From Escherichia coli (GTDB taxonomy: Bacteria; Pseudomonadota; Gammaproteobacteria; Enterobacterales; Enterobacteriaceae): a DNA stretch of 64,000 bases. Under the pieces are notes generated by a model. That model saw nothing but the letters and a program-made list of their open reading frames with translations, ran no database searches and was not told where the DNA came from. A program made the translations under genes and the position numbers. The stretch is taken from the NCBI RefSeq assembly GCF_013122565.1, contig NZ_CP053258.1. The stretch is one strand, 5' to 3'. Positions 44,372-55,767 of the stretch are shown piece after piece (the stretch's first letter is position 1; the number at the start of each line of letters is the position of its first letter).

Positions 44372-44380
44372 TCCAGCATG

Positions 44381-44500
<120 letters not shown>

Positions 44501-48246: not shown

Positions 48247-50490
48247 TTAGAAACGGAAGGTTGCGGTTGCAACGACCTGACGTTCTGCGCCCCAGAAACA
48301 GCCATAAGTGTTAAAGCAGCTGGCGACGTATTCACGATCGAACAGGTTGTTGACATGCAGCGCCACGTTGGAGCCCGCCATGCCGACTCGCGCCAGATCA
48401 TAACGCACTAACGCATCCACGACCGTATAACTTCCCACTTTAAAGGAGTTAGCCGGATCACCATAGCTGGAGCCAGTATAACGACCACCGGTGCCCAGCG
48501 TCAGACCTGAAAGTGGACCGTCAAAGAAGGTATAGTCAGCCCACAGCGAAGCCATGTGTTTTGGCACCTGTGCAGGCGTATTGCCTTTATAGGTAGTATC
48601 GGTGGTGTATTCCGCATCGGTGTAAGTATAAGAACCGACTACGTTAACACTCGCCGACAGCGCCGCTTTCGCTTCGATTTCTACGCCACGAGCGCGGATC
48701 TCACCACCTTCAACCGAGAAGAAGGAACCCTCAGGGTCCGCCATCAGGTTGTTGGTTTTAGTGAGATTATACACGGCACCAGTAACTACAATCGGACGAT
48801 CTTCCGGTACATATTTCACGCCGACTTCATACTGCTTACCTTTAGAGGGTGCAAAAATATTACCATCCTTCCCAACTTGCGAAGAAGGTTCAAACGATTC
48901 GCTATAGCTGAAGTAAGGTGTTACACCATTATCAAACAGGTAGTTAACACCACCACGCCAGGTAAACTGTTTGTCATCACGTTTATCGGTCGTTCCCGCT
49001 ACGCGGTTAAGAGATTCTTGATCTGCCCAGTCGTAACGCCCGCCCAGGGTGACCAGCACTTTATCCCACTGCGCCTGATCCTGAACATAAACGCCCGTTT
49101 GTTTCTGCTTATTCAGAATGCGGTAAGGACCGGAGTTTGCCGGATCTTTGGCATTGAAGTCGAAATCGGTATTCACCGGATTGTACAGATCGAGCAGCGG
49201 CACAGAGTCGTCGTAACCAAACCAGGCGTTGATGTCATTACGCATACGCATAAAGTCGACACCGGTCAGCAGGGTGTGGTCGATATCGCCAGTGGCAAAC
49301 TTGCTCTGCAACTGGGTATCAACGGAGAAGTTTTGCAGCTTCTCATCATCAACGACGTATTTACGTGCCAGATAATGGCCTTTATCCGCTGGCGCTAATG
49401 CCGCACACTGTTTGCTGTAAGCATTCGCCGGATCGGAGCAGACGCCGTAACCATAAACGCTGTTTTGCGAAGTTTTGTTTTCAGCAAAGCGCAGGTTCTG
49501 ACGCACAGTAAAGGTGTCGTTAAATTCGTGATCGAAGCTGTAGCCCACCATCTTCTCATTACGAGAATAGGTGTTGTTCTTCGCCCCTTCGTTAAAGTCT
49601 GTCGGCAGACGCTTACCGTTCGGCAGCGGCTCAACAGTTCCCTCTTTCGGCAACCAGCCGTAATAACCGGTTTCCGGCTCGTTCTGGAAGTAAGAAAGGA
49701 AGGTGAAATTGGTTTTATCGTCCGGACGCCAGGTAAACGCTGGCGCAATGGCATAACGCTGCTCTTCCGCGCCCTTTTGCTGGGCATTGGCAGAGCGCGC
49801 AAGACCGGTCAGACGATAAGAGTAAACGCCGTCATCATCCAGCGCATCGCTGAAGTCAAAACCGGTCTGGAAGAGGCTGTCAGTCCCGGCCTTAAACTGA
49901 ACTTCTTTCAACGGTTCAGTGGTCGGGCGCTTGCTGACCATATTCAACAGACCGCCAGGACTGCTTTTACCGTAAAGCACGGAAACCGGGCCACGCATAA
50001 TTTCAGCGCGTTCCAGCATATACGGGTCAATGACCGCATCGTTATAGAAGTTGCCCTGCAACTTCAGGCCATTCAGATAGTTATTCTGACTTTGGCCTTC
50101 TGCCGCAAAACCGCGAATGATCAGGTGGTCATAGGTGTTGGATGCGCCACGCGTACCAACAGAGACACCCGGCGTGTAGCTGAGCGCCTCTTTTACTGAC
50201 TTCGGCTGATGTAGCGCCATCTCTTCGGCGGTCACAACAGAAATAGACTGTGGCACTTTTTGAATCGGCGTATCGGTTTTAGTGCCGGTAGCAGACTGTC
50301 GCGCCGCAATAGTTGCAGCCGGCCCCCATGCGCTTTCTTGCGGCGCAGGTGCAGCGGTAACGGTGATAGTGTCTTCTTTCGGTTCAACCGCTGCCTGTGC
50401 ATAAACAGACATGCCGCTAACCGCTGTGGCTACTACAACTGCGATTTTACGCAGTGAGTGTTTTGGCTGAGCAGTTTTGGAACGCGCCAT
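48247..50490 (-). CDS. fhuA: TonB-dependent ferrichrome outer-membrane receptor FhuA
   Basis: 747 aa, signal peptide, TonB box, C-terminal ...ATFRF. Confidence 0.95.
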   Translation of the reverse strand: MARSKTAQPKHSLRKIAVVVATAVSGMSVYAQAAVEPKEDTITVTAAPAPQESAWGPAATIAARQSATGTKTDTPIQKVPQSISVVTAEEMALHQPKSVKEALSYTPGVSVGTRGASNTYDHLIIRGFAAEGQSQNNYLNGLKLQGNFYNDAVIDPYMLERAEIMRGPVSVLYGKSSPGGLLNMVSKRPTTEPLKEVQFKAGTDSLFQTGFDFSDALDDDGVYSYRLTGLARSANAQQKGAEEQRYAIAPAFTWRPDDKTNFTFLSYFQNEPETGYYGWLPKEGTVEPLPNGKRLPTDFNEGAKNNTYSRNEKMVGYSFDHEFNDTFTVRQNLRFAENKTSQNSVYGYGVCSDPANAYSKQCAALAPADKGHYLARKYVVDDEKLQNFSVDTQLQSKFATGDIDHTLLTGVDFMRMRNDINAWFGYDDSVPLLDLYNPVNTDFDFNAKDPANSGPYRILNKQKQTGVYVQDQAQWDKVLVTLGGRYDWADQESLNRVAGTTDKRDDKQFTWRGGVNYLFDNGVTPYFSYSESFEPSSQVGKDGNIFAPSKGKQYEVGVKYVPEDRPIVVTGAVYNLTKTNNLMADPEGSFFSVEGGEIRARGVEIEAKAALSASVNVVGSYTYTDAEYTTDTTYKGNTPAQVPKHMASLWADYTFFDGPLSGLTLGTGGRYTGSSYGDPANSFKVGSYTVVDALVRYDLARVGMAGSNVALHVNNLFDREYVASCFNTYGCFWGAERQVVATATFRF

Positions 50491-50530
50491 TGGTATATCT
50501 CTGATGTAAAGTGAATGATAACGTAAACGA

Positions 50531-50559
50531 GAATGATTATTATAAAGATAAGATAATAT
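50531..50559 (-). promoter_or_regulatory. Fur-box-like iron-regulation site in the fhuA promoter region
   Basis: gaATGATtATtATaaaGATAAgATAAT, AT-rich GATAAT/ATTATC-type hexamer repeats 40-70 bp upstream of the fhuA ATG. Confidence 0.5.
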
Positions 50560-50709
50560 TCGAAACGCTGGCGGGTTCGCAAGCGGTACGCAATCTGAGC
50601 GTTCCTGAAGGGTTAATAAACAACCAGATGAAAAGAAAGGGTTAATACTTTAGGTGGGATGTTATTTTACCGGATGGCAACTCGCCATCCGGTATTTCAC
50701 GCTTAGATG

Positions 50710-53244
50710 TTAATTACTACCAAACATATCCTTAATCCAACCGGCTACACCGTCGCTATCTTTCTGCTCTTGCTGGGCAGGTTGCTGTTGCGGCTGTTGC
50801 TGCGGCTGTGAAGACTGATCAAACGGATTGCCTGACGGCTGCTGCTGCATCTCACTCTGCTGGCACAGCGATTGCGGATCGCTGGTCCAGACCGGCAAGA
50901 CACGCATGCCACCGCTGCAAACAAAGTTGCCGTCGTAGTCCACGCCCATATCTGCAATATCTTCTGGCGGAACAAGATTCAGCGGTGTTGGCGTCTGGTT
51001 AGCCAGATAACGCTGATAAATCGACATTGCCCCGCTGGCACCATACAGTTTGGTCGGCTGGTTGTTATCACGGCCTACCCAGGTGATGGTCACCGTGCTG
51101 CCGTCAATGCCCGCAAACCAGGTATCTACGTTATTGTTGGTAGTCCCTGTTTTCCCTGCCAGATGCAGGTTCGGGTATTTCGCCCCAAGCTGACGACCCG
51201 TACCGCGTTGTACCACCTGCTGCATGGTCCATAGTGTCAGATACGCCGCCTGCGCCGGAACAGCGCGTTCCGCCTGCGGGAAGCTCTGATACAGCACTTT
51301 GCCATCTTCCGCAATTACCGAACGCAGCGCAGAAAGCGGTGCACGGTTACCGCCGCTGGCGATAGTCTGGAATGCCTGCGCCACTTCGATTGGCGTTAAG
51401 TTCAACGCCCCCAGCAGCATCGCCGGAACCGGATGCAGCTGATCTTTCGGTACGCCCAGTTTAATCCAGGTCTCCGTAACCGCAGGCAGCCCCAGCGCCA
51501 TCCCCAGATTTACCGTCGGCACGTTCATCGAACGGGTCAACGCATCCACCAGCATCACTCTGCCGCTTTCGCTATAACGACGGTCATCGTTCTGCGGTGA
51601 CCAGACCTGGCCATTCGGCTGACGTAGCGCGATTGGCGCATCCGCAATCCACGTATTCAGACGATAGATTTTCGGCTGGCTTAAGGCCGTCAGATAAGTC
51701 GCTGGTTTTGCAAGAGAACCAATCGAACGACGCGCCTGCATCGCACGGTTGTAGCCCGCAAACTGCGGCTCAGAACCACCGACCATCGCACGAACTTCAC
51801 CACTAAAGCGGTCGACGACCACAATCGCAGTTTCAAGATCGCTCAGCTTACGCTGTTTCTTCAGTGCCGGAATGCCTTCCACGGCGGCTTTTTCTGCCGC
51901 GTCCTGTGCCACCGAGTCAAAGGTAGTGAAGATCTTCACGCCGGAGAGATCTTTTACCTTATCGCCCAGTTTTGCCTGCAACTCCTGACGCACCAGCTGC
52001 ATAAAGGCTGGCTGAGGAGAGATCACCCCACCGCGCGGCTGAACACCCAGCGGACGTGCACTCAACATGTCATAGAGTTCTTGATCAATAATCTGTTGCT
52101 GTTGCAGCAGACGCAGCACCAGATTACGTCGCTCCAGCGCCAGTTTTGGGTTACGCCACGGGTTGTAGATGGACGCCCCTTTCACCATGCCGACTAACAG
52201 CGCCTGCTGGTCGAGGCTTAGCTCTTCTACCGGGCGACCAAAGTAATACAAGCTCGCCAGCGGGAAGCCGCGGATTTCGTTGTCGCCGCTCTGACCGAGA
52301 TACACCTCGTTCATATACAGCTCAAGAATACGGTCTTTGCTGTAACGCGCGTCCATGATCAGCGCCATGTAAGCTTCGTTCGCTTTACGCCAGTAAGAGC
52401 GCTCGCTGGAGAGGAACAGGTTTTTCACCAGCTGTTGCGTCAGCGTACTCGCCCCCTGCACCGTGCGACCTGCGGTCAGGTTTGCCAGCACCGCACGTCC
52501 GATGGAGTAGAGACTGATTCCATCATGCTCGTAAAAATGACGGTCTTCTGTCGCCAGCAAAGTATCCACCAGCAAATCAGGGAAACCACTGCGCGGCACA
52601 AACAGACGCTGCTCACCGTTTGGCGAGGAGATCATGGTGATCAGGCGCGGATCAAGACGGAAGAAGCCGAACTGACGGTTGTTCTCCATATTGACGATGG
52701 TCGCCAGATGATCGCCATCAAAGGTCAGACGCGCACGCACCTGCCCTTCTTTACTGTCCGGGAAATCAAACGGACGGCGGATCATCTCAATGCTGTTGGC
52801 CTGCACGGTAAATTCGCCAGGACGGGTCATTTTCGACACCTGACGATACTGGGTAGCCTCCAGCAGCTTCACCATCTCGTTCTTGCTGATGGTCATATCT
52901 GGCTCAAGGTTGACCATTCGGCCATAAACTGCCGCAGGCAGTTGCCAGACCTTGCCATCAATACGGCTACGAATTTTTTGATCGAGATAAACACCGTAAA
53001 TGGCGATCAGCACGGCAAAAACGATAGCCAGTTTTAGCAGTAGCCATAGCCAGCCGCGTTTGCCACGAGGCTTACGCCCTTTGCCTTTGCCCTTACCTTT
53101 GCGCGGCATCGGTTCTTCATCCTCATAGTCATCATAATCGTCGTAATCATCGTCATCTTCGTAACGACGACGGCTTACCTTTTGTTTGACCGGACGCGTC
53201 GGTTTCCCTTTGCGTCCAATTGGCTCGCGGTCATTCCCGGCCAT
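50710..53244 (-). CDS. mrcB: Penicillin-binding protein 1B (bifunctional transglycosylase/transpeptidase)
   Basis: 844 aa from [21 protein letters not shown], acidic and KGKG-rich cytoplasmic tail, GT and TP domains. Confidence 0.9.
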
Positions 53245-53337
53245 GCTTTTTCTCCGCAATATTCAGGCGCAAAAGCCCGATTTTCTGTTCTTCTGTTGCA
53301 AGACAGAAGAAGATATCTCTCAAATTTGCTTTGGTCT

Positions 53338-55767
53338 TCACGAATACTTTTTCGTCCGTCGCGTCGGTGCCGTGTTTGCCGGGTCATCCGGCCAGACGTG
53401 TTTGGGATAACGCCCTTTCATCTCCTTTTGCACCTCACGATACGCCCCTTTCCAGAAGGCCCCCAAATCACGCGTGATTTGCAGCGGCCTTTGGGCAGGG
53501 GAAAGCAACTCCAGCACCAGCGGCACGCGCCCCTGGGCGATCGTCGGATTGGTGGCCTCGCCAAACATCTCTTGCATTCTCACCGCCAGCGCGGGCGGGT
53601 TATCTTCATGATAACGAATGGCGATCCGGCTTCCCGTCGGCACAGTGTAATGCGCAGGCAATTCACTATCCAGACGTTGCTGCATTCCCCAATCAAGTAA
53701 TCCGCGTAGTGCCTGATAAATGTCGAGTGATTTCAGGCCGCGTAGTGAATGTACACCGGCCATATGTGGCAGCAGCCACGTTTCCAGCGTCGCCAATAAA
53801 CTTTCATCATCAACCGCTGGCCAGTCATATTCTGGCAACCACTTTGCGGCGCATAACAAACGCAAGCGTAGCTGTTCCGCTTCCGCCGTCCAGTTGAGCA
53901 CGCTTAAACCTTTATCACGAATGCCGTTAAGCATCGCCTGATGCAACTCGTCTTCTGACGGTTTCGCCAGTGGCTGCACTTTCACCGTCAACTGACCGAT
54001 TTGCAGCCGACGCCAGGCTTTCAGCGTACCTTGCGCGTCATCCCATTCCACGGTGTCAGATTGCTGCACCAGCTGCGGACAGCGTTGTACTAATTCATCA
54101 ATATCGACCGGTAGCGCCAGTAAAATCCGCGCATCCGGCGAGGCGCTGCCCTGCAATAATAACGGTGCGATCAACCATTCGTGGCGGCTTAGCGCGTCGT
54201 CGGCATCGAGCATCGCTCCCATGCCGTTTGCCAGTTGATAGCGTCCATCTTGCCCACGGCGACGAGCAATGCGATCGGCAAACGCCCCGGCAAGTAGCGG
54301 CGCGATAAGCGAACTGTCTGCCTCACCGCCGCGTACGTTTAAGTGTTTTAACAGTTGCTGACTACGTTGCTGCCAGGCTGGTTGATTGCGCGAAAACGCC
54401 ACGCCCAGGTCACTATTGCCCATCCGTGGCGGCTCTTCGAGAATGGCGGCAATTTTTGCCGCGGTAGCAGCTTCGTCGTCGCTCTTTGCGCTAACCAGCA
54501 TTGCCGCTAAACGCGGATCGTTACCCAGCGCTGCCATTTTTTGCCCTTGCGCACTAAGCCGTTCACCGTCCAGCGCCCCTAGCATCTTTAACAGGCGTTT
54601 CGCGGCCAGTAAATTCACTGCTGGCGGTTGATCCAGCCAGCTCATCTGCGCCGGATCGCTGCATCCCCATTGCAGTAATTCCATCAGCAAACCGGAAAGA
54701 TCGCTTTGTAAGATCTCCGGTTCACTTTGCGCGGCAGCGCGTTCTGCTTGTTCTTTGGCGATTAAATGTAGGCAGATACCCGGCTCCAGACGCCCGGCAC
54801 GCCCGGCACGCTGCGTCATCGACGCCTGACTGATTCGCTGAGTAATCAACCGCGTAAGCCCTGTTCGCGGATCAAAACGCGCCACCCTTTCCTGGGCACA
54901 ATCCACCACCAGACGAATACCTTCGATGGTTAAACTGGTTTCAGCAATATTGGTCGCCAGCACCACTTTGCGCATCCCTTGCGGTGCCGGGAGGATCGCT
55001 TTTCGCTGATCGTTTAGCGACAACGCGCCATACAGCGGGCAGAGCAACACATCACTGCCGATGCGCGAAGCCAGTTGTTCCTGCACACGCTGAATTTCTC
55101 CGACGCCAGGTAAAAATAACAGTAATGATCCACTTTCCTGACGCAGCATTTCGGCGGTGGCAACCGCGACGGCTTCGTCAAAACGCTGATGCGCGGGCAG
55201 CGGTAAATAACGGCGTTCAACCGGAAACGAGCGCCCTTCTGAGATGACGACGGGCGCTTCTGGCAGCATTTGCTGCAAGCGGTCGTTGTCCAGCGTAGCC
55301 GACATAATCAGCAGTTTAAGGTCATCACGCAGACCTTGTTGCACATCGAGTAACAACGCCAACGCCAAATCCGCCTGCAAGCTGCGCTCATGAAATTCAT
55401 CAAGGATCACCAATCCAACACCGCTCAGTTCCGGGTCACGCTGGATCATCCGCGTCAGCACGCCTTCGGTAACCACTTCCAGGCGGGTATTCGGCCCGAC
55501 GCAGTTTTGCGCACGCATCCGGTAGCCAACGGTATCGCCTGGCTTTTCGTTAAGCAGCTCCGCCAGCCGTTGCGCGACGTTACGCGCCGCCAGACGACGC
55601 GGCTCCAGCAGGATAATTTTCCCGTTAATGCCGGGATGCGCCAGCAGTTGCAGCGGCAGCCAGGTTGATTTCCCGGCCCCGGTCGGCGCACTTAATAACA
55701 CCTGCGGCGCACAATCGAGAGCGGTAAGTAATTCAGGTAAGACGGCAGCAACGGGCAACGACGACAC
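53338..55767 (-). CDS. hrpB: ATP-dependent RNA helicase HrpB (DEAH-box)
   Basis: 809 aa if started at in-frame GTG (V16 of track ORF); Walker A APTGAGKST, DEFHER motif. Confidence 0.85.
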   Translation of the reverse strand: MSSLPVAAVLPELLTALDCAPQVLLSAPTGAGKSTWLPLQLLAHPGINGKIILLEPRRLAARNVAQRLAELLNEKPGDTVGYRMRAQNCVGPNTRLEVVTEGVLTRMIQRDPELSGVGLVILDEFHERSLQADLALALLLDVQQGLRDDLKLLIMSATLDNDRLQQMLPEAPVVISEGRSFPVERRYLPLPAHQRFDEAVAVATAEMLRQESGSLLLFLPGVGEIQRVQEQLASRIGSDVLLCPLYGALSLNDQRKAILPAPQGMRKVVLATNIAETSLTIEGIRLVVDCAQERVARFDPRTGLTRLITQRISQASMTQRAGRAGRLEPGICLHLIAKEQAERAAAQSEPEILQSDLSGLLMELLQWGCSDPAQMSWLDQPPAVNLLAAKRLLKMLGALDGERLSAQGQKMAALGNDPRLAAMLVSAKSDDEAATAAKIAAILEEPPRMGNSDLGVAFSRNQPAWQQRSQQLLKHLNVRGGEADSSLIAPLLAGAFADRIARRRGQDGRYQLANGMGAMLDADDALSRHEWLIAPLLLQGSASPDARILLALPVDIDELVQRCPQLVQQSDTVEWDDAQGTLKAWRRLQIGQLTVKVQPLAKPSEDELHQAMLNGIRDKGLSVLNWTAEAEQLRLRLLCAAKWLPEYDWPAVDDESLLATLETWLLPHMAGVHSLRGLKSLDIYQALRGLLDWGMQQRLDSELPAHYTVPTGSRIAIRYHEDNPPALAVRMQEMFGEATNPTIAQGRVPLVLELLSPAQRPLQITRDLGAFWKGAYREVQKEMKGRYPKHVWPDDPANTAPTRRTKKYS

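Follow-up and report, generated by a model that had tools for sequence, protein, structure and literature searches.

Many E. coli mRNA ends are stem-loops that lack a U-tract. In the class described by Dar & Sorek 2018 (PMC6061677), Rho-dependent transcripts end in stable stem-loops with little U and no upstream A-tract, C is mildly enriched over G downstream, and the stem-loops shield the RNA against PNPase and RNase II. A hairpin of the REP type also stands at an RNA end, the 3' terminus of lspA, among the entries of Bar et al. 2023 (PMC10687069), whose maps cover K-12 (a strain other than the one analysed here) grown in LB or minimal medium without iron starvation.

The second system with which the present locus has to be compared is the iron-regulated promoter of fhuA. 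Chen et al. 2007 (PMC2189734) described three Fur sites clustered over 31 bp (19.5 bits, K-12 167439) and confirmed them by gel shift, and fhuA is a member of a Fur iModulon listing. In Salmonella, Jo et al. 2019 (PMC6397515) reported HypT footprints on TTACGTTATCATTCA (+7 to +21) and on AACCCTTCCTTTTCA (-111 to -97). Here, we describe the spacer between mrcB and fhuA, which serves two separate and ordinary purposes, both for genes on the minus strand: it holds the Fur operator of fhuA and the 3'-end stem-loop of mrcB. Both are already documented, and neither is new.

The spacer between mrcB and fhuA

The window (the whole 64-kb stretch of E. coli chromosome that was analysed) carries the two genes in the same orientation, as follows.

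48247-50490, minus strand: fhuA coding sequence (ferrichrome outer-membrane transporter), from the open reading frame list and the RefSeq annotation of near-identical E. coli records
50710-53244, minus strand: mrcB coding sequence (PBP1b), with its stop TAA at 50710-50712 and its start mapped from K-12 164730

An earlier note on this DNA, made from the sequence, had described a spacer of 219 bp upstream of fhuA. It does run from 50491 to 50709, between the fhuA ATG (50490, minus strand) and the mrcB stop, and it has the same length in K-12 (167265-167483), from which it differs at 3 positions, 0 of them in the hairpin or the promoter. Coordinates were transferred by alignment, a window position x corresponding to K-12 167484 + (50490 - x). 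A 401-bp query round the site matched 5421 of 5426 complete E. coli genomes, the best at 99.8% identity, with mrcB and fhuA as the annotated genes. The open reading frame list holds no plus-strand gene at the spacer, and an Rfam scan of 50000-51200 on both strands returned chance-level matches alone (E above 0.2), so that this interval contains no known RNA family.

Fur operator and promoter of fhuA

The promoter-proximal part of the spacer and its conserved upstream region contain the following elements.

50512-50547, minus strand: Fur operator cluster (C/T)ATAATAATnATTCTCGTTTACGTTATCATTCA, from the consensus scan, Chen et al. 2007, conservation and the HypT footprint
50539-50544, minus strand: TATAAT, the fhuA -10 box as used by Jo et al. 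2019, from the sequence and their numbering
50553-50558, minus strand: TATTAT, a -10-like hexamer in which TAnnAT is invariant in the 45-species alignment
50577-50582, minus strand: TTGCGA, a -35-like hexamer 18 bp upstream of TATTAT, with CTTGC invariant in 45 species
50512-50526, minus strand: proximal HypT site TTACGTTATCATTCA, by homology with the Salmonella footprint at +7 to +21
50629-50643, minus strand: distal HypT footprint AACCCTTTCTTTTCA, by homology with the Salmonella footprint at -111 to -97
50600-50645, minus strand: conserved upstream block ATTAACCC..TTTTCATCTGGTTrTTTCTTAACCC from the 45-species alignment, which holds the distal HypT footprint

A scan of the window with the 19-bp Fur consensus GATAATGATAATCATTATC gave its best match in the spacer, 14/19, at 50529-50547, as part of a series of matches (50517, 50523, 50529 and 50535) that overlap in 6-bp phase. 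The plain consensus scan discriminates poorly, with eight 14/19 matches in the window; cluster scoring, conservation and the literature were therefore used. By cluster score the spacer ranks second in the 64 kb, and 0 of 2000 spacer shuffles reached the observed value. The strongest Fur-like cluster in the window, at 53106-53169, was rejected as an artefact of coding GAT repeats in mrcB, repeats that presumably encode an acidic 11-residue segment of the mrcB product.

The operator core was placed at 50512-50547 from the conservation across 45 species and the published site centre, K-12 167439, which corresponds to window 50535 and lies 45 bp ahead of the start codon. In the alignment of 45 Enterobacteriaceae, a 33-bp operator block is nearly invariant; it lies upstream of fhuA, over the -10 box TATAAT and over the transcription start, which the numbering of Jo et al. 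2019 would place at window 50532. The earlier note had assigned Fur repression to AT-rich repeats at 50531-50559. These repeats (GATAAG/GATAAT and ATGATTATTAT) are found there and belong to the published, gel-shift-tested fhuA operator, but the interval lies about 15-20 bp upstream of the core. It comprises the distal half of the operator, a non-conserved CTTATC and the conserved TATTAT hexamer, which is the GATAAT of the earlier note when read on the plus strand. Taken together, the published site, the conserved block and the HypT mapping show that 50531-50559 overlaps the distal half of a known operator. Fur control of fhuA is thus correct, and already established.

From the -35 box to the ATG, the sequence is identical to that of the K-12 fhuACDB promoter and Fur operator, with no difference between the two. 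The region at about 50512-50582 is the sigma-70 promoter of fhuACDB with the Fur operator over its -10 box and start; Fe2+-Fur turns this promoter off, and the two HypT sites flank it.

A stem-loop behind the mrcB stop codon

At the other end of the spacer stands a stable hairpin, at which a 3' end of mrcB mRNA has been mapped in K-12.

50668-50694, minus strand: stem-loop UACCGGAUGGC-GAGUU-GCCAUCCGGUA, with an 11-bp stem (including the flanking T/A pair) and a 5-nt loop; the 3'-end structure of mrcB mRNA
50658-50669, minus strand: steady-state mrcB mRNA 3' terminus in K-12, the peak at 167305-167316 among the entries of Bar et al. 2023, with coordinates transferred by alignment

The hairpin that had been pointed out in the spacer, ACCGGATGGC-aactc-GCCATCCGGT, is present exactly at 50669-50693 and, as was also said, follows the mrcB stop closely, beginning 16 nt after it. 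Folding yields -18.8 to -20.9 kcal/mol (z about -5 to -6), a stability that 0 of 200 shuffled sequences match. With 3 mismatches allowed, it is the sole match to itself in the window, where 0.00 are expected by chance. Among 11 Escherichia sequences, 0 of 22 stem columns vary versus 12 of 48 other intergenic columns (one-sided Fisher p = 0.0065), and 3 of the 5 loop columns vary. When covariation was sought in the Escherichia stem, zero stem changes were found, which leaves no compensatory pairs to be counted, and the hairpins of other genera are non-homologous and unalignable. Selection on the RNA stem is nevertheless suggested by its invariance across these sequences.

The earlier note had taken the T-runs that flank the hairpin on the plus strand as the sign of a terminator for antisense transcription. 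On the plus strand the arrangement is TTATTTT-stem-ATTTCACGCTT (in RNA, UUAUUUU before the stem and AUUUCACGCUU after it), and on the mrcB strand it is GTGAAAT-stem-AAAATAACAT, with the tail AAAAUAACAU after the hairpin. A U-rich tract directly after the stem is absent on the mrcB strand (AAAAUAAC), and the plus strand offers only (A)UUUCAC, which is marginal. A terminator score of the d'Aubenton-Carafa type, valid for comparison only, came to +6 to +21 on the plus strand versus -15 to -2.5 on the mrcB strand, and a simple terminator consensus scan called the hairpin on neither strand. The plus-strand score being modest and the scan calling neither strand, the asymmetry is real but weak: the better U tail does belong to the plus strand, but the longer T-run sits 5' of the stem, where it has no part in termination. 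Folds of the whole spacer are dominated by the hairpin and have an equal z of about -4.8 on both strands, favouring neither.

The mapped 3' end of mrcB

Supplementary Data 2 and 3 of Bar et al. 2023 (PMC10687069) list an mrcB 3' terminus on the mrcB strand as 'Primary'. In the LB RNAtag-seq entry, the terminus spans 167306-167315 with a dominant position of 167312 (signal 0.972, rank 356; adjusted p = 0, 4e-41 and 4e-33), and the accompanying fold, given as UACCGGAUGGCGAGUUGCCAUCCGGUA, has -20.9 kcal/mol and a longest U-run of 2. In two more sheets of the same source the dominant position is 167310, with signals of 0.83 and 0.98. The hairpin of K-12 is identical to that of the window, where the two dominant positions become 50664 (K-12 167310) and 50662 (K-12 167312) on the minus strand, that is, 4-6 nt past the stem and within the tail AAAAUAA. 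In the rows adjoining the mrcB terminus (K-12 160,101-173,365), no terminus is entered for the opposite strand. A match to the mrcB 3' end was also sought in TERMITe and none was found, and a full-text literature search for mrcB with Term-seq, or for mrcB, fhuA and terminator, found no paper.

As far as the entries of Bar et al. 2023 go, the antisense reading is not supported: the published K-12 ends at the hairpin are on the minus strand, which is the outcome that the earlier note had named beforehand as speaking against it. That mrcB mRNA ends at this hairpin is documented, and since the hairpin has no U-tract, we place it in the known class of U-less terminal stem-loops. A hairpin whose T-runs suggest the wrong orientation can nonetheless form the genuine 3' end of the gene upstream.

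It is very improbable that the hairpin instead terminates plus-strand transcription coming from the fhuA side, and does not serve mrcB. Several observations point that way: (i) UUU follows the stem immediately on the plus strand, which also has the higher of the two scores given above; (ii) the 3' end of fhuA itself, as mapped among the entries of Bar et al. 2023 (PMC10687069), consists of a hairpin followed by the same AUUUCAC tail; (iii) a twin of the hairpin elsewhere in the genome (see below) is entered there as the ygiC 3' end in the orientation that matches the plus strand of the window; and (iv) a plus-strand promoter-like site lies within the Fur operator, at 50515-50543. Apart from the mapped terminus, what argues against this reading is that the site has neither a plus-strand gene nor an Rfam family, that the longer T-run lies on the wrong side of the stem, that relatives hold mrcB-strand terminators at the same place, and that the promoter-like match is the AT-rich Fur box read backwards. 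We give almost no credence to a bidirectional variant in which the hairpin would also end a plus-strand transcript of about 145 nt, starting at 50515-50543 and made only when Fur is off under iron starvation.

The twin occupies the 37 bp that separate ygiD from ygiC, two convergent genes, and is near-identical, with the same 11-bp stem and the loop GAGT where mrcB has GAGTT; neither copy has a U-tract. Bar et al. 2023 (PMC10687069) enter it as the primary terminus of ygiC, followed by AUUGUUA (U-run 2), with the end 6 nt past the stem. Unlike the mrcB hairpin, the twin has convergent genes on its two sides, and it is used the other way round. As the same stem marks RNA ends in either orientation and without a U-tract, a block to exonucleases fits better than a directional terminator. 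Use in either orientation also means that the sequence by itself leaves a plus-strand function possible, and a secondary role on that strand is conceivable under conditions other than those mapped. It is a related and equally remote possibility that the two copies represent a tiny family of orientation-independent, U-less 3'-end elements.

How the 3' end may be formed

Our preferred reading, which we hold with considerable confidence, is that the hairpin is a U-less 3'-end stem-loop of mrcB, that RNA polymerase would be released downstream by Rho with subsequent trimming of the RNA, and that the element may have originated from a REP pair. Of this, the structure itself, its invariance, the K-12 end mapped at it and its location in a conserved terminator slot are shown. 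With the class of Dar & Sorek 2018 (PMC6061677), the mrcB hairpin shares a stable stem-loop at a precise 3' end, the lack of a U tail and A-tract, and an excess of C over G downstream; the difference is that for mrcB we infer Rho dependence and exonuclease trimming. The downstream excess concerns one candidate element.

50591-50667, minus strand: candidate rut region, C-rich and G-poor (19 C versus 9 G across the 78 nt that run from 50668 to 50591)

The C/G ratio of 2.1 over the 78 nt after the hairpin is a mild bias, at the 93rd percentile of 78-nt windows in the 64 kb. On this model, RNA polymerase would most likely leave the template beyond the hairpin, probably through the action of Rho on the C-rich, G-poor tract, after which 3'-to-5' exonucleases would trim the mrcB RNA back until the stem stops them, which would give the stable mrcB-strand transcripts the ends observed 4-6 nt past the stem. 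The hairpin would in this way set and protect the mrcB 3' end and, together with termination, may insulate the iron-regulated fhuA promoter from mrcB transcription. In Adams et al. 2021, neither a Rho-termination (bicyclomycin-sensitive) region nor a curated 3' end is listed at K-12 16727x-16738x; mrcB is weakly expressed, which leaves that data set with low power here, and this absence is consequently weak evidence against Rho.

It is also possible, though on the whole unlikely, that the hairpin is a direct, factor-independent terminator of mrcB, in which the stable stem and an all-A/U tail (UAAAAUAA, giving a weak RNA:DNA hybrid) release the polymerase with neither Rho nor trimming. The tail is indeed 100% A/U, the report of Adams et al. 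2021 is in keeping with such a terminator, and the ygiC twin, as entered by Bar et al. 2023 (PMC10687069), has the same geometry. The 3' end 4-6 nt past the stem likewise resembles that at the thrL attenuator, the one true intrinsic terminator compared, for which the same source gives a similar spacing between stem and end; because of this similarity the spacing does not tell trimming from direct termination. Against direct release stand the negative score on the mrcB strand and the terminator scan, which does not call the hairpin. Intrinsic terminators of E. coli normally need a U-rich tail. Furthermore, Dar & Sorek 2018 (PMC6061677) place U-less terminal stem-loops with Rho-dependent transcripts.

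The slot after mrcB in relatives

With the MrcB C-terminus as the query, 80 Enterobacteriaceae loci were fetched, 75 of them from outside Escherichia. Within the 3.5 kb fetched downstream of mrcB, fhuA was present in 61 of the 80, with a spacer of 214-359 nt in 60 and of 2049 nt in the remaining one (L023). Across the 80 loci, a hairpin lies within the first 15-100 nt after the mrcB stop. In 64 of the 75 non-Escherichia loci it is a canonical mrcB-strand terminator (within the first 10-100 nt), with a GC stem, 5-9 T and a score of 17-73. From one genus to the next the sequences of these terminators show no relationship, for example cccgcttcggcggg followed by TTTTTC in Citrobacter, ccccttcccgggaagggg followed by TATTTTTT in Enterobacter and ccccttaatacgaaagtattaagggg followed by TTTTTTT in Klebsiella. 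REP pairs fill the slot in Salmonella arizonae and diarizonae, in C. amalonaticus and in one further genome (L056), and the U-less hairpin fills it in Escherichia (E. coli, E. whittamii and two further clades).

The sequence that follows the Escherichia hairpin, AAATAACATyCCA..TAA.TT-ATTAACCC, is homologous to the sequence past the terminators or REPs of Citrobacter and Salmonella; the hairpin thus fills a variable slot between the mrcB stop and the conserved fhuA upstream region. The terminators of Citrobacter, Enterobacter, Klebsiella, Kluyvera, Kosakonia and others occupy the same slot, 10-60 nt past the mrcB stop and upstream of the fhuA control region, and have a similar stem stability. 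They differ from the Escherichia hairpin in that they have 5-9 T on the mrcB strand and often an A-tract before the stem, whereas Escherichia has AAAATAAC, and the two share no sequence.

A further occupant was met within E. coli, where the hairpin is missing in about 570 of 5426 genomes. In both of the hairpin-less genomes examined (2), a four-gene chaperone-usher fimbrial operon lies between mrcB and fhuA, and homology to the K-12-type spacer picks up again near window 50645; E. albertii has a fimbrial operon at this location too. A different 10-bp hairpin, CGCTCTCCGC-ttat-GCGGAGAGCG, follows mrcB in one of the two genomes (DA33135), in a further E. coli contig (L008) and in E. albertii; it is also U-less, with the tail TAATGAAA. 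That two unrelated stable hairpins are found at one place speaks for a requirement for a terminal stem-loop at this point. The terminator slot has been refilled repeatedly, by unrelated hairpins, REP pairs and the hairpin of the island strains, while the Fur/HypT region of fhuA has stayed almost unchanged. We regard this as a tidy case of terminator turnover that involves no new mechanism and matters little outside annotation.

Relationship to REP elements

The mrcB hairpin resembles REP/BIME elements in being a GC-rich palindrome just past a stop codon, in its CCGGATG core and in matching the outer arms of the REP pair found at the orthologous site in C. amalonaticus. It differs from them in its perfect and short stem, where a REP is an imperfect palindrome of about 35 nt, in the missing end tetranucleotide GTAG/CTAC and in its few copies, where REPs number in the hundreds per genome: a 39-nt query spanning the hairpin found a median of 2 and a maximum of 3 places per E. 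coli genome, and 1 in the window. Against the REP Y and Z consensus, the hairpin scored 11-14, equal to random hairpins (12.5 +/- 2.4), and NC_000913.3 has no REP annotation at the site. The absence of CTAC, the random-level consensus score, the 2-3 places per genome and the lack of a REP annotation together mean that it is not a REP by definition. REPs reportedly stabilise 3' ends.

The likeness to C. amalonaticus was noticed before it was scored, and the figures are to be read as a post hoc comparison: 12 nt are identical to an outer arm of the REP pair, which gives a score of 24-26, and of 5000 composition-matched random hairpins only 1 reaches an alignment as good. The arms of the E. coli hairpin are the same as the outer arms of that pair (GCCGGATGGC ... 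GCCATCCGGTA; TAAccgccgtGCCGGATGGC ... GCCATCCGGTAatgac). Together with the REP pairs in the slot of Salmonella arizonae, diarizonae, C. amalonaticus and L056, this would suit a leftover, without function, of a REP pair (BIME) formerly located after mrcB, with the RNA end as a passive by-product. We consider a remnant without function improbable: the stem is invariant where neighbouring bases vary, an unrelated hairpin takes the slot in the island-carrying strains, and a strong 3' end forms at the hairpin according to the entries of Bar et al. 2023 (PMC10687069). An origin from a REP pair and a present function can go together, and, judged from the sequence, the functional mrcB 3'-end stem-loop may itself be a collapsed REP pair.

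A widespread repeat family was considered as well and rejected. A metagenome scan for CCGGATGGC-N4-5-GCCATCCGG gave more than 120 matches, which were mostly unrelated hairpins or coding sequence, at 38-77% GC; as the 9-bp core occurs in many unrelated organisms over that range of GC content, it is no signature of a family.

A twin of the mrcB hairpin and turnover of the mrcB 3' slot

The U-less stem-loop at the 3' end of the mrcB mRNA (50668-50694) has a twin in the gap that separates the convergent ygiD and ygiC genes (positions 1504-1530 of L003, the fetched ygiD/ygiC locus; about 3181590-3181620 in K-12), with an identical 11-bp stem and the loop GAGT vs. GAGTT after mrcB. The primary 3' end of ygiC maps to this twin (Bar et al. 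2023, PMC10687069). A chance origin of two such copies is unlikely (rough estimate, about 1e-3), and a third match occurs in some genomes, including K-12-like ones.

Among loci from other Enterobacteriaceae fetched with the MrcB C-terminus (L012-L086), the slot up to 100 nt past the mrcB stop holds a canonical terminator in each genus, and these terminators are mutually unrelated; in some of these loci it is replaced by REP pairs, and in L059, L065, and L086 another repeat, ccctcaccctaaccctctcc..., stands in its place. The mrcB 3' slot is a site of terminator turnover across genera. Two canonical REP pairs (BIMEs) also lie elsewhere in the window, at 2841-2950 and 44380-44472.

The hrpB-mrcB spacer of K-12 (590-660 of L001, the K-12 locus) contains the repeat element CCCTCACCCTAACCCTCTCC...GGGAGAGGG, which forms the mapped 3' end of hrpB in that strain (Bar et al. 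2023, PMC10687069). This element is absent from the strain of the window, where 53245-53340 was compared with L001:590-660, and is found after mrcB in some Enterobacter-like genomes.

An alternative allele between mrcB and fhuA

Among the 5426 complete genomes of E. coli, the K-12-type hairpin is absent from about 570. In both of the two hairpin-less genomes examined, a four-gene chaperone-usher fimbrial operon lies between mrcB and fhuA. In DA33135 (L006), in the E. coli contig L008, and in E. albertii (L009), the hairpin that follows mrcB, CGCTCTCCGC-ttat-GCGGAGAGCG, is likewise U-less but differs from the K-12 type. Homology to the K-12-type spacer picks up again ~130 bp upstream of fhuA.

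Features of the mrcB-fhuA gap
Gap of the two hairpin-less E. coli genomes examined: operon of fimbrial protein, chaperone, usher, and a second fimbrial protein
Between 50645 and 50712: site of difference in other strains (L004, L005, and L006; L008 and L009)
50600-50645, upstream of the fhuA promoter: conserved block ATTAACCC..TTTTCATCTGGTTrTTTCTTAACCC
50539-50582, minus strand: two overlapping candidate fhuA promoters
Candidate 1: TTGCGA-18 bp-TATTAT, both hexamers conserved in 45 species, predicted start near 50546
Candidate 2: TATAAT box of the literature (Jo et al. 2019, PMC6397515), start at 50532

The fhuA upstream region and 3' end

The conserved block includes a direct repeat of TTAACCCTT, its copies about 29 bp apart, and the inverted repeat GGTTA-N5-TAACC; the distal HypT footprint known from Salmonella explains only part of it. 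The TATAAT-based candidate promoter has a poor -35 region. Of all Fur-consensus clusters in the window, the strongest (53106-53169) is a false positive; it falls within GAT/TAT repeats of mrcB, which presumably encode an acidic segment of its product, [11 protein letters not shown].

The mapped 3' end of fhuA lies at about 48209 (K-12 169765), at the hairpin GGGGCACGGAUUUCCGUGCCC followed by AUUUCACA, and is classed as "Alternative primary in TU" (Bar et al. 2023, PMC10687069). Read on the plus strand, the mrcB hairpin is followed by this same short AUUUCACA tail.
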